Assembly: GCA_021836035.1 (NCBI GenBank)
Contig: JAKBJL010000002.1
Location: forward strand, 3,691 to 67,690
DNA: 64,000 nt
Reading direction: 5' to 3'
Source of the DNA: a bacterium
GTDB taxonomy: Bacteria; Patescibacteriota; Microgenomatia; JAMCZE01
Numbering within the stretch: position 1 is the stretch's first letter; each line of letters begins with the position of its first letter. The notes beneath the pieces were generated by a model. The model was not told the origin of the DNA. It worked only from the letters and a program-made list of their open reading frames with translations, and did not search any database. The position numbers and the translations under genes were made by a program. Shown piece by piece: positions 61,666 through 63,900 of this stretch.

Positions 61666-62409
61666 TTATAAGGGCATTATTCCTTTGGCCCTAATTTTGG
61701 ATTTGGCAGCGATGAATATTTTCCGATGCAGTGCTTCTTTATCGGAAAACTCCAAATTATTTTTAAATTTAAATTTAAAATCGGGGTAATCCGGCAGGAT
61801 TTTAGGCGTATATAGGTATCTGAACCCTGACTTTTCCAATTTAAGACGGATAAAATTTATAGTTGGTCGGCAGGCCAGGGTAGTGAGAGACTGGTTAACG
61901 GCAGTTGTTTCTTCCTCAAATCTCACCAGCGGCTTATCATAATCGCAGATAACCGTTTCTATAAGCAGGATATCCTTACACAGTTTACACATCCTCTCCA
62001 ATACTAACGCGGGATTTTCCGTATGATAAAGTAGGCCATAACAGAAAACGATATCAAATTTTTTTAAACCACGAAGGCTGGATCTTTCAATATCGATTAC
62101 CCTAGCCGGGAGCTGGGGATAGCGGGACTTTAAAATCCGAATATTTTCTTTGCGTCCGTCCACGCACAATACCGGGCAATTTTTTGCCGTAAAATAACCG
62201 GCCAGGTGTCCGATTCCGCACCCGATATCTATTACCGATTTACCCCTAAAGGCAATTCCCAGGGTATCCAGGTTTGCCAATCGTGCTTTGTTAATCTCCA
62301 GGGCAGCCGGATAGTCAAACACGTCTTCGGGTTTGCGGAATATGAATTTCGGCGAAGATGTCGCGCCGTTTATTTTCCAAAAATTGGTAATTCTATGAAT
62401 CATGGACAT
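61666..62409 (-). CDS. class I SAM-dependent methyltransferase
   Basis: Motif I VIDIGCGIGHLAGYF and a post-I acidic residue (LCVDG). Its start overlaps the upstream ABC ATPase remnant by 10 nt. Confidence 0.7.
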   Translation of the reverse strand: MSMIHRITNFWKINGATSSPKFIFRKPEDVFDYPAALEINKARLANLDTLGIAFRGKSVIDIGCGIGHLAGYFTAKNCPVLCVDGRKENIRILKSRYPQLPARVIDIERSSLRGLKKFDIVFCYGLLYHTENPALVLERMCKLCKDILLIETVICDYDKPLVRFEEETTAVNQSLTTLACRPTINFIRLKLEKSGFRYLYTPKILPDYPDFKFKFKNNLEFSDKEALHRKIFIAAKSKIRAKGIMPL

Positions 62410-62972
62410 AAATTATGATATTTTTTTATCACCTGGTTTGTGGGACCATCAAGAATCGTCAAACCCTTATCAAGCAATATCGTCCGCGGGCAAAGGGTTT
62501 TTACCGCATCCAGATTATGGCTGACAAATATTACCGTACGTTTTTGTGATCCCGTTAAATCCTTAATTTTTTGCAGGCATTTCTTTTGAAACCTCTCGTC
62601 GCCTACCGATAATACTTCATCAATTAGCATAATTTCGGTGTTTAAATGGGCTGCAACGGCGAAAGCTAAGCCCATATACATCCCCGAGGAATAATGTTTG
62701 ACCGGGGTATCAATAAAATTCCCTATCTCGGAAAAATCGACTATTTCACCGAATTTTCTATTGATTTCCCCCTGTTTCATACCTAATATTGCGCCATTAA
62801 AATAGATGTTTTCCCTACCGGTTAATTCGGGGCTAAAACCGGTACCCACCTCTAAAAGGCTGCTCATTTTACCGGTAAATTGAAATTCGCCCCGTGTGGG
62901 TAAGGTAACCCTGCTGAGTATCTTCAACAGGGTACTCTGGCCTGATCCGTTGCGCCCGATAAGCCCCAACAC
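62400..62972 (-). pseudogene. Wzt/TagH/KpsT-type ABC transporter ATPase remnant, N-terminally truncated, with Walker A Lys replaced by Gln
   Basis: AEVLGLIGRNGSGQSTLLK (a Walker A with K changed to Q), the YSSGMYMGLAFAVAAH signature and IMLIDEVLSVGDERFQKKC (Walker B/D-loop typical of Wzt/TagH). A tandem taa taa stop lies 2 codons upstream of the GTG start. About 30-40 N-terminal residues are missing. Confidence 0.65.
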
Positions 62973-63667
62973 TTCCGCCTTTGCTTATTAACCAGAGCAA
63001 CGGCTTCGATTATCCCGTCAACATTTTTCCAGGGTACTAACCGTCCGAAATAAATTACCCGATAAACATCTTTCTTGCGGAATACCCTTTTTGCAGTTTC
63101 GGGGATTTCCACCGCGTTGTAAATAACCCGGATTTTCAATTTAATTACGCCGTATTTATCGGCAACAATATCCGCCAGGAATTTTGAAGGAACAATTATC
63201 GCGTCGGACAAATTAAACGAGATTTTTGTCAGGAATTTTATGATTAAATAAGTAAGTCCTGCGTCGGTGTGATCTAAAAAATTCGGCAAAAACTTCTGTG
63301 TTCGACCGTTAGCAAAAGCCGTTTCCCAGGCAGGACCTCCGACATATTTAATCAGGGCTCTTTTCCCGACTAATTTCCCCACTATAACGGTAGCAAGACC
63401 GACGACAAGGGGATCCTGGGCATAAAACACTTCGCAATTGCTGCCGTATTTCAGAATCTTTTGGACTAAATTTATCTGCCGGATAAGGGAGCCGCCCCTT
63501 TGGGTAACGGAAACGACCTGGGTACCGGCATATCTCTCCAGATTTTTGGTAAAGGTTAAAACCTTAGAGGCATGTTCTTTTAGTCTTTTGATTATTTCCG
63601 GGACATATGAAGCAGGTCCGCCGATCTCCGGAGGAAATATCGCCGTGGTAATAAGAACCCTCATCAA
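62924..63667 (-). pseudogene. partial paralog of the GT4 gene at 50009-51160 (N-terminal about 230 aa only)
   Basis: Protein MMRVLITTAIFPPEIGGPASYVPEIIKRLK...GRLVPWKNVDGIIEAVALVNK is about 70% identical to the 50009-51160 product up to VNK(K/Q)R. It then diverges into the ABC ATPase junction and stops. Confidence 0.65.
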
Positions 63668-63900
63668 ACGATTATCTTCCTGCTAAAATACTTTAGCAAG
63701 CTCTTGAGCTACAAACAGACGACCCTTATCGCTTAGATGTTCATTAATCGGTCCCTCAGTTTCCCAGACAAAATCTTCTGTGGGAAGAGAAAAAGAGAGA
63801 TCTAAAACTATCACATAATTTCCCACAAGCACATTTTTCACTATTTTAATATTGTCGGTGATCACTTCTCAGCTCTTGATACCTATTCCTTTTACTGACA
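62975..63900. repeat. copy B (degraded) of the same paralogous segment
   Basis: See copy A. Both embedded reading frames are interrupted. Confidence 0.6.
63683..63865 (-). pseudogene. fragment paralogous to the C-terminus of the SGNH-like gene at 51176-52153
   Basis: LDLSFSLPTEDFVWETEGPINEHLSDKGRLFVAQELAKVF matches LDLSYSLPSADFVWKTEGPINEHLGDKGRLSVASQIAKAV. An in-frame stop lies immediately upstream of the GTG start. Confidence 0.5.

Follow-up and report, generated by a model that had tools for sequence, protein, structure and literature searches.

A run of truncated genes in a surface-polysaccharide island of an uncultured bacterium, probably left by deletions in a redundant cassette

Clusters of genes for surface polysaccharides such as O-antigen and capsule evolve by replacement, and remnants are left behind as they do so. 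Glycosyltransferases of the GT-B type can also occur as split enzymes, those of the Alg13/Alg14 type being made of two polypeptides. Polysaccharide pathways of both the Wzx/Wzy type and the Wzm/Wzt type have been described (PMC7685785), and in some Wzm/Wzt systems the end of the chain is capped and then recognised by Wzt_C (PMC7685785).

The stretch described here is a small graveyard of truncated genes in a large cell-surface polysaccharide island of an uncultured bacterium. The window, by which we mean the whole stretch of DNA that was analysed, is 64,000 nucleotides long; the features of interest are listed in Table 1. The island is hypervariable and resembles O-antigen and capsule clusters in its many GT4 and GT2 genes, in combining a Wzx/Wzy-type route (Polysacc_synt at 44879-46105, Wzy_C at 31406-34552) with a Wzm/Wzt route, in a GC content below that of neighbouring core genes, and in the truncated leftovers at the boundaries of its blocks. 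It differs from them in its host, which is uncultured and whose named relatives are candidate-phyla-radiation lineages; in the source of its remnants, which is an old paralogous cassette in the same genome (63% protein identity) and not a displaced allele of the same locus; and in its junction, which has no flanking insertion sequence or long repeat. We consider it probable that the polysaccharide-synthesis genes once had a second, redundant copy and that deletions within it left this run of remnants.

Table 1. Positions in the window of the remnants, their junction and the intact genes discussed with them
Feature	Coordinates	Strand	Basis
Decayed FkbM-type (Methyltransf_21) pseudogene, in an apparent 590-nt intergenic gap	61104-61478	-	BLASTP with stops masked
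Class I SAM-dependent methyltransferase, apparently intact	61666-62409	-	Pfam Methyltransf_23/11/12/25
Wzt/TagH-type ABC ATPase fragment, 194 codons, no internal stop	62400-62984	-	NCBIfam, Pfam
Recombination junction	62974-62984	-	Codon-by-codon comparison with intact GT4 and intact wzt; three-frame translation
GT4 glycosyltransferase, N-terminal 230 codons (paralog of 50009-51160)	62978-63667	-	BLASTP, Pfam
SGNH-like gene tail, last 60 codons (paralog of 51176-52153)	63683-63865	-	BLASTP
Possible GT1-family C-terminal remnant (tentative)	63846-64000	-	Weak Glycos_transf_1 match
Intact reference cassette: SGNH-like gene (51176-52153) and GT4 (50009-51160)	50009-52153	-	ORFs, Pfam

Read along the minus strand from 63865 to 62400, the last 60 codons of an SGNH-like gene are followed by the first 230 codons of a GT4 glycosyltransferase and then by a Wzt/TagH ABC ATPase. 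The first two have an intact counterpart elsewhere in the window, a reference cassette that is preceded by an MBOAT gene and followed by an epimerase gene. The GT4 fragment, which starts at 63667 or 63664, matches residues 1-230 of the intact GT4 with 63% identity over 230 aa (BLASTP, E 4e-100), and among 5.8 billion proteins this paralog is its best homolog. Its N-terminal domain (Glyco_transf_4, Pfam PF13439) is entire (residues 16-187, E 4.5e-9), and the family-invariant residues of that domain are kept, except for D111G. The C-terminal Glycos_transf_1 domain is represented by profile positions 6-45 of 172 only, whereas the intact paralog spans 7-171. The first-pass annotation had placed the end of GT4 homology at about codon 230 (VNKQR), which is where we find it; beyond that point the called ORF continues into wzt sequence in the wrong frame, adding 17 codons before it stops at a TGA (62924).

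The SGNH-like copy is broken as well, as had been proposed. Its 60-codon ORF matches only residues 265-323 of the 325-aa paralog (BLASTP, 66% over 59 aa, E 2e-26), and homology begins abruptly at 63865 with an in-frame stop before it. The missing first 264 codons are those that in the paralog carry, near the N-terminus, the GDS motif (YFGDSII), and the fragment accordingly has neither the block I GDS nucleophile nor a complete domain of the SGNH/DltD-like kind. The paralog itself has no sequence match in Pfam, NCBIfam or the PDB, and for this reason the family label rests on the motif and on the position after the MBOAT gene.

The partial duplication of the 50.46-51.4 kb block that had been noticed is borne out by direct comparison, in which 62974-63809 aligns to 50467-51305 (blastn, 848 columns, E 5e-56). 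Both copies keep the gene order and a spacer of ~15 nt between the SGNH-like stop and the GT4 start; given these and the E-values, the relation is more than chance. Identity between the copies had been put at 80-90%; the measured values are 65-66% for DNA and 62-66% for protein. That the SGNH tail and GT4 head are an old paralog of the 50.5-51.3 kb block, and no assembly duplicate, is supported. Third-position identity between the copies is 30-44%, i.e. saturated (in the SGNH-like tail it is 30%, against 75% at positions 1 and 2). For the GT4 fragment and its paralog dN is 0.28 and dS ~2.1, likewise saturated (dN range for the copies, 0.27-0.28; dN/dS ~0.14), and in Tajima relative-rate tests with 10 outgroups the fragment is not accelerated relative to the paralog (e.g. 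25 vs 20 unique changes; all p > 0.07). Together, the saturated third positions, the dN/dS and the equal rates indicate that the second SGNH-GT4 cassette spent most of its history in working order. Beside the junction, at codons ~205-225, 13 of 15 synonymous codons are identical between the copies, a possible sign of gene conversion (P = 0.005 uncorrected) that is lost after correction for ~27 windows.

These figures bear on another possible history, in which a copy of 836 nt, covering only part of the 50.5-51.3 kb block, was inserted into a wzm-wzt operon and was never functional. The duplicated segment is indeed one contiguous piece with its intergenic spacer kept, and its boundaries are abrupt at both ends. 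However, a never-functional piece could not have reached 66% DNA identity with such a dN/dS and saturated third positions, its rate equals that of the intact paralog, and it holds 290 open codons, of which the GT4 part would stay open with P = 0.004 at 20% neutral substitution (simulation). The insertion of a dead copy is thus very unlikely. The truncation of a once functional cassette, which we prefer, came late: all three fragments (483 codons) are still open, the probability of which, in simulation, falls from P = 0.04 at 5% neutral substitution to P = 0.001 at 10%, and the truncations are therefore placed under ~5% neutral substitution. The gene caller counts all three fragments as genes, and freedom from stops and frameshifts is an outcome also expected from selection for function.

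The third fragment, the ATPase, is matched by family profiles from well inside their starts: the NCBIfam TagH model from 49-50 to 236 of 264, the galactan Wzt model from 56 to 241 of 244, and Pfam ABC_tran from position 11. Relative to a full-length NBD, ~48-58 residues are absent (the N-terminal strands and aromatic A-loop, ~model 1-48), and the alignment with the neighbouring intact Wzt begins at residue 59 of the latter, with 57% identity. Walker A (GxxGxGK[ST]) reads GRNGSGQST, with Gln in place of a Lys that is present in 118/118 of the closest homologs; Gln at this position is absent from all short Wzt homologs inspected. The missing N-terminus and the Lys to Gln change are as the first-pass annotation had them. 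In addition, the Arg of SSGMxxR (98% conserved) is Gly, and of the 85 columns with conservation of >=95%, 6 differ in the fragment, against a median of 1 in homologs. The signature, Walker B and H-loop are present (HYSSGM, IMLIDE, FVSHN). The fragment ends at its natural C-terminus, which overlaps the methyltransferase start by 10 nt, and because of this overlap and a GTG start, translation of the fragment may persist. Its direct upstream neighbour is the truncated GT4; of the closest Wzt homologs, the two that were examined for gene context both have wzm (ABC2_membrane) immediately upstream.

Compared with Wzm/Wzt (TagG/TagH) transporters, then, the fragment is of the Wzt/TagH type by sequence and is followed by methyltransferases, and its intact neighbour has Wzt_C; but it lacks the N-terminus, the Walker A Lys, an adjacent Wzm and a C-terminal binding domain, and it is not classifiable as a working member. 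Recent copying from the intact wzt nearby was considered as its origin and rejected, since identity is 57% there and 65-68% to Wzt of other phyla. One apparent close relative (P0006, 338 bits) is an unrelated Wzt whose internal tandem duplication inflates the score.

On the minus strand, GT4 homology stops at ...GTT AAT AAG CAA AGG (CGG) and Wzt homology starts at (AAG GCG) GAA GTG TTG GGG. The switch is confined to ~10 nt (~62974-62984), in agreement with the distance first reported; a sharp recombination junction, with a truncated GT4 on one side and an N-truncated, Walker-A-mutant Wzt on the other, is supported. A few bases, AAAGGCGG, fit both parents, as judged against diverged paralogs and not the true parent sequences. 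Wzt homology opens with AKAEVLGLIGRNGSGQST..., in the other frame, immediately after TAA TAA. This taa taa had been remarked on as preceding the ATPase; it is present, but it is no designed stop: the GT4 codons GTT AAT AAg give TAA TAA once the frame is changed. A programmed -1 frameshift fusing GT4 to Wzt was also considered and rejected: the interval from TAA TAA to the GT4-frame stop has no slippery heptamer, and a fusion product would also be without the Walker A Lys. In the search for mobile-element boundaries, neither direct nor inverted repeats reached significance; the window has no tRNA gene and no match to an Rfam family, and the counts from a promoter and terminator scan are not above those of shuffled sequence.

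Downstream of the ATPase, the methyltransferase has a complete SAM-binding Rossmann domain with a glycine-rich motif I (in VIDIGCGIGH), and its 3 deviations among 43 conserved columns are no more than the family shows (0-8). No homolog exceeds 50% identity; one of them, from a Candidatus Vogelbacteria MAG, lies within a wzm-wzt cluster (locus L006) and is directly followed by a Methyltransf_21 gene. The same order, methyltransferase and then Methyltransf_21, is retained here by the FkbM-type pseudogene. Its minus-strand frame has in-frame stops, three of them within the compared stretch; with stops written as X, it matches the Methyltransf_21 protein of L006 at 26% over 152 columns (BLASTP, E 4e-10), with a gap of 28 columns, so that in place of an uninterrupted FkbM-family ORF there are in-frame stops and an internal gap of ~28 residues. 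Pfam gives no match on this remnant.

At the other end, a possible GT1-family remnant belongs to an 80-codon ORF that crosses the end of the window and reaches ~64088 on the parent contig. The sequence ...VTGGLLSIRENIFEANAIFSKPEDPDSLAQAIITLVSKRNRYQEL aligns with only the last 34 positions of Pfam Glycos_transf_1 (135-168 of 172) with E=0.18, which is not significant, and the candidate has no significant match among the window's own glycosyltransferases. The FkbM pseudogene and the possible GT1 remnant are additions to the earlier picture, and with them the scar reaches well past one junction.

The first-pass annotation had read the site as a scar where ABC-dependent export was displaced. The local wzm/wzt unit is indeed destroyed, and wzm is missing from it, but displacement of the pathway does not hold. 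Both wzm (ABC2_membrane, 272 aa) and wzt (ABC_tran and Wzt_C, 419 aa) are present and intact 6.4 kb past the window end on the same contig, and the only wzm on the contig is the partner of this intact wzt. The ABC export pathway is thus kept, and one of two cassettes has decayed. The GC content of the intact wzm-wzt block is 36-39%, compared with 41-45% at the scar region.

In the history that we propose, the ancestral order in the direction of transcription would have been a GT1-family gene, then perhaps MBOAT, SGNH-like, GT4, further genes, wzm, wzt, SAM-methyltransferase and FkbM-methyltransferase. This order is reconstructed and not observed, because no relative turned up in which the second cassette is intact: the protein search, the GTDB representative genomes (a set that excludes the source genome) and JGI metagenome contigs gave none, the nearest outside GT4 being 56% identical. 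Decay of the FkbM gene, through point mutations and small deletions, would predate the truncations. A single illegitimate deletion, removing at least ~1.4 kb, may then have fused GT4 codon 230 to ~wzt codon 55, using the few shared bases and taking out the GT4 catalytic domain, wzm and the 5' end of wzt, and a second breakpoint would account for the loss of all sequence upstream of SGNH-like codon 265. Directly observed are the anatomy, the homologies, the recurrence of the junction in several assemblies, the absent catalytic residues and the relative ages; the number of deletions and their mechanism, presumably of the microhomology type in a redundant cassette, are inferred, as is the loss of function. 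The fragments would now be non-functional pseudogenes too young for stop codons, with the downstream methyltransferase still intact and ABC-transporter export supplied by the lower-GC cassette 6.4 kb off. Loss of function is suggested by the Walker A Gln, the Arg to Gly change, the 6/85 deviations and the loss of the ATPase N-terminal 48-58 residues, as well as by the missing GT4 C-domain, first 264 SGNH-like residues and local wzm. Understood in this manner, the locus is a dated case of redundant glycan cassette pruning, with an old functional duplicate, recent short-homology deletions and an alternative wzm-wzt cassette kept next door.

The fragments could instead be functional small proteins: a stand-alone GT4 N-domain (the acceptor-binding half of a GT-B enzyme), a dead ATPase that partners or regulates the intact Wzt, or both. 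They are all open and called as genes, nearly all family-invariant N-domain residues are retained in the GT4 head, and a relative (locus L003) has an independent N-domain-only GT4 ORF of 209 aa, 35% identical, that sits between an intact GT4 and an epimerase gene and overlaps the epimerase start by 4 nt. Like one half of an Alg13/Alg14-type enzyme, the GT4 ORF encodes only the N-terminal Rossmann-like half; unlike it, there is no partner ORF here for the C-terminal half, the break lies 40 residues into the C-domain and not at the domain boundary, and the ORF closes with out-of-frame foreign sequence, the 17 wzt codons. The ATPase fragment is without the first ~50 domain residues and the Walker A Lys, its Gln is seen in none of the short Wzt homologs inspected, the 60-aa SGNH tail cannot form a domain, and no orthologous copies were found that would show conservation. 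Functional small proteins therefore have little chance of being the right explanation. The broader proposal, that N-domain-only GT4s are recurring acceptor-binding half-enzymes or regulators in the glycan islands of small-genome uncultured bacteria and that the Gln-Walker-A Wzt fragment is a degenerate partner of the intact Wzt, strikes us as highly improbable.

Finally, a chimeric assembly join at 62975-62995 is barely credible: although the window derives from a metagenome assembly, the junction-spanning ORF (P0001) recurs without a single residue changed on 7 contigs (50-200 kb for 3 of them, 0.2-1 Mb for the other 4) from different pipelines (Logan per-run assemblies, ENA and NCBI), a Logan contig is 100% identical to the window across 12.3 kb, the paralogs are only 66% identical and so provide no long repeat able to mislead an assembler (the longest exact match is 23 nt), and the slight decay of the Wzt part (K->Q, R->G), the out-of-frame GT4 run and the FkbM pseudogene form a biologically coherent picture. 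The broken-gene stretch is real and is an ordinary genomic scar, which raises no new biological question. For annotation, three or four called genes (60, 246, 190 and 80 aa) need to be marked as fragments of pseudogenes, and the 590-nt ‘intergenic’ region is a dead methyltransferase.

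Nearly all genes of the window are carried on its minus strand, and reading down that strand from 63865 to 62400 three broken genes are met in succession: the tail of an SGNH-like gene, the head of a GT4 glycosyltransferase and a fragment of a Wzt/TagH-type ABC ATPase. The first two are paralogous to an intact cassette in the same window, and the spacer between them (~15 nt) equals that of the intact copy. Upstream of the SGNH-like tail, the same frame holds a stop codon and unrelated sequence. Against the TagH and galactan-Wzt models, alignment of the ATPase fragment starts no earlier than model positions 49-56. 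The homologies and fragment limits are as the first-pass annotation had described them. In a dot-plot comparison, run as blastn, 62974-63809 matches 50467-51305 with 66.3% DNA identity over 848 columns; the 80-90% identity earlier ascribed to the copies was too high.

Features of the truncated genes and their surroundings
Feature	Position	Strand	Details
SGNH-like tail, 60-codon ORF	63865->63683	minus	66% identity to residues 265-323 of 325-aa gene 51176-52153, E 2e-26
GT4 glycosyltransferase head	start 63667/63664	minus	63% to intact GT4 50009-51160 over exactly 230 residues, E 4e-100; last residues ...ALVNKQR
Wzt/TagH-type ABC ATPase fragment	62984->62400	minus, frame differs from GT4	begins AKAEVLGLIGRNGSGQSTLLK...; stop-free to 62400
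SAM-dependent methyltransferase	61666-62409	minus	start overlapped 10 nt by ATPase fragment end
Decayed FkbM-type methyltransferase pseudogene	61104-61478	minus	in-frame stops and internal deletion
80-codon ORF	adjoining the fragments		end weakly like last 34 positions of GT1-family C-domain, E 0.18
Five genes: radical-SAM/SPASM, two FkbM-like methyltransferases, GT1, GT2	next, on parent contig past window end	opposite
Intact wzm	beyond the five opposite-strand genes		272 aa, ABC2_membrane
Intact wzt	with intact wzm		419 aa, ABC_tran and Wzt_C carbohydrate-binding domain

A codon-by-codon comparison places the switch from GT4 to Wzt homology in 62974-62984. The GT4 side ends GTT AAT AAG CAA AGG (CGG), where the paralog has GTT AAT AAA AAA AGG GGG, and the Wzt side starts (AAG GCG) GAA GTG TTG GGG, where intact wzt has AAG CAG GGA GAG ATA TTG GGG. 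A few junction bases (AAAGGCGG) are compatible with both parents; this overlap would be the expected trace of a short-homology illegitimate join, the sequences compared being paralogs and not the true parents. The TAA TAA preceding the ATPase is the GTT AAT AA of the GT4 gene in the Wzt reading frame, and the GT4 ORF reads on out of frame into wzt, for 17 codons, until a TGA at 62924.

The arrangement is real and reproducible, with a small residual doubt on the assembly. A 92-kb Logan contig (run SRR13170411) matches the window at 100% identity across 12.3 kb, and the exact sequence of the junction-spanning 246-aa product is found in the NCBI, ENA and Logan collections, on seven contigs, four of them 0.2-1 Mb and three 50-200 kb in length. 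Exact matches between the paralogous blocks do not exceed 23 nt; there is no repeat able to cause a mis-join. Positions 1-5200 of the window (Amidase_3, DUF3800 and several small ORFs) occur in public assemblies only on contigs of 2-9 kb, unlike the remainder, and may be strain-variable or hard to assemble.

Judging from substitution patterns, the second SGNH-GT4 cassette was a working in-lineage duplicate through most of the time since duplication. This reading rests on four results. First, the GT4 head differs from its paralog with dN 0.28 and dS ~2.1, third-position identity being 44% (30% for the SGNH tail) and that of positions 1+2 75-76%. Second, Tajima relative-rate tests with ten outgroup GT4s gave no sign of acceleration in the GT4 fragment (all p >0.07; in one example, 20 unique changes in the fragment versus 25 in the paralog). 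Third, among 5.8 billion proteins the top match of the fragment is its own paralog, with the runner-up at 56%. Fourth, of 74 conserved GT4 columns the fragment deviates at 7 and the intact paralog at 5. When neutral substitution was simulated, the probability that all three fragments (483 codons) stay open was 0.04 with 5% substitutions per site and 0.001 with 10%, so the truncations are recent when set against the duplication. Close to the breakpoint on its upstream side, at 63013-63075 (codons ~197-218 of the fragment, ~197-228 of the alignment overall), 13/15 synonymous codons are identical to the paralog, versus 51% overall. A short gene-conversion tract may be the source, but the rise is not significant once corrected for multiple windows.

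The Wzt fragment is mildly decayed. In its 118 closest homologs, 85 columns are ≥95% conserved, and the fragment departs from 6 of them (homolog median 1; six or more in only 3); the departures include the Walker A Lys (K in 118/118) and the Arg following the YSSGM signature. The SAM-dependent methyltransferase deviates at 3 of 43 conserved columns, within the family range, and looks intact. In the 590-nt gap between it and the next gene (61076-61665), the minus-strand reading frame is broken by stop codons. Once the three stops of the part that was compared are replaced by X, the translation matches a Methyltransf_21 (FkbM-type) protein (E 4e-10, 26% identity, one 28-column gap); Pfam did not detect the remnant. 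In a Candidatus Vogelbacteria MAG (GCA_016181425.1), the matched protein lies directly downstream of the methyltransferase homolog, in a cluster that also holds wzm, a Wzt_C-bearing wzt, GT2 and GT1. The order of the two methyltransferases is thus conserved, with the second gene dead here.

The 80-codon ORF is tentatively a GT1 C-domain remnant. The block from the five opposite-strand genes to the intact wzm-wzt (parent contig L001:1004-8315) has 36-39% GC, versus 41-45% in the fragments and elsewhere in the island, and may be a separately acquired cassette. The truncated ATPase is no recent copy of the neighbouring wzt: it has only 57% identity to that Wzt but 65-68% to Wzt of Nitrospirota, Acidobacteriota, Chloroflexota and others. 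In both close homologs whose gene neighbourhood was inspected, wzm is directly upstream; here the truncated GT4 takes that place. Elsewhere the window encodes a Wzx-type flippase, a Wzy_C-PMT_2 fusion, an initiating Bac_transf transferase and many glycosyltransferases, with a dcw cell-wall cluster at ~13-22 kb. The fusion (31406-34552, minus) is a 1048-aa protein with a Wzy_C (O-antigen ligase/polymerase-like) region and a PMT_2 (GT-C-type) region, and several more PMT_2 or DUF2142 membrane proteins are encoded in the island, at 40893-42185, 46053-47519 and 47503-49068. The sole long plus-strand ORF within the minus-strand island (37422-38747, 441 aa) overlaps both of its neighbours; all three are without a Pfam match.

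Most likely, two cassettes, each serving ABC-transporter-dependent export of a glycan and its modification, were once present together, and one became dispensable. Its first loss would have been the decay of the FkbM methyltransferase. A later deletion of at least ~1.4 kb would have fused GT4 at codon 230 to wzt near codon 55, taking the 3' part of GT4, wzm, the 5' end of wzt and probably more, and a separate breakpoint would have removed all sequence preceding codon 265 of the SGNH-like gene. The remnants would be pseudogenes, yet are called as ORFs by gene callers. That the fragments retain a functional role is improbable; against this stand a GT4 ORF that ends in an out-of-frame tail, a nucleotide-binding core without its N-terminal third, the loss of the catalytic Lys, and the failure to find a family of proteins truncated in a similar way. 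The strong imprint left by purifying selection in the past speaks against the insertion of a partial copy that never functioned. Of the first-pass interpretation, the recombination scar of truncated GT4 and Wzt is upheld, but not the displacement of the export pathway, as intact wzm-wzt lie on the same contig.

Polysaccharide loci of mosaic structure that contain remnants of genes are commonplace, and the stretch is a further case of a known type of scar, in an uncultured host whose named relatives are candidate-phyla-radiation lineages. The Wzm/Wzt pathway is described in PMC7685785, together with methylation as a terminal cap and recognition via a Wzt C-terminal domain. The ATPase fragment is Wzt by sequence but lacks three of the four defining features tested (full domain, Walker A Lys, adjacent Wzm), and in its working it resembles no known system. 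The GT4 fragment is without a complete C-domain, and the SGNH tail has lost its N-terminal 264 residues, the part that bears the GDS motif in the paralog.

In a relative (L003:3680-4309, Logan SRR22388082_420826), a 209-aa ORF comprises the GT4 N-terminal domain only. It lies between an intact GT4 (P0160) and an epimerase, whose start it overlaps by 4 nt, and is ~35% identical to P0160 and to the window's GT4 fragment alike; being so diverged and yet open, it may be a functional half-enzyme. The Wzt homolog P0006 (L002:10001-11020, ENA ERZ25039484 contig_48195) has an exact internal tandem duplication of ~100 residues, from Walker A to Q-loop, which is possibly a long-read assembly artefact, since the genes around it appear fragmented.
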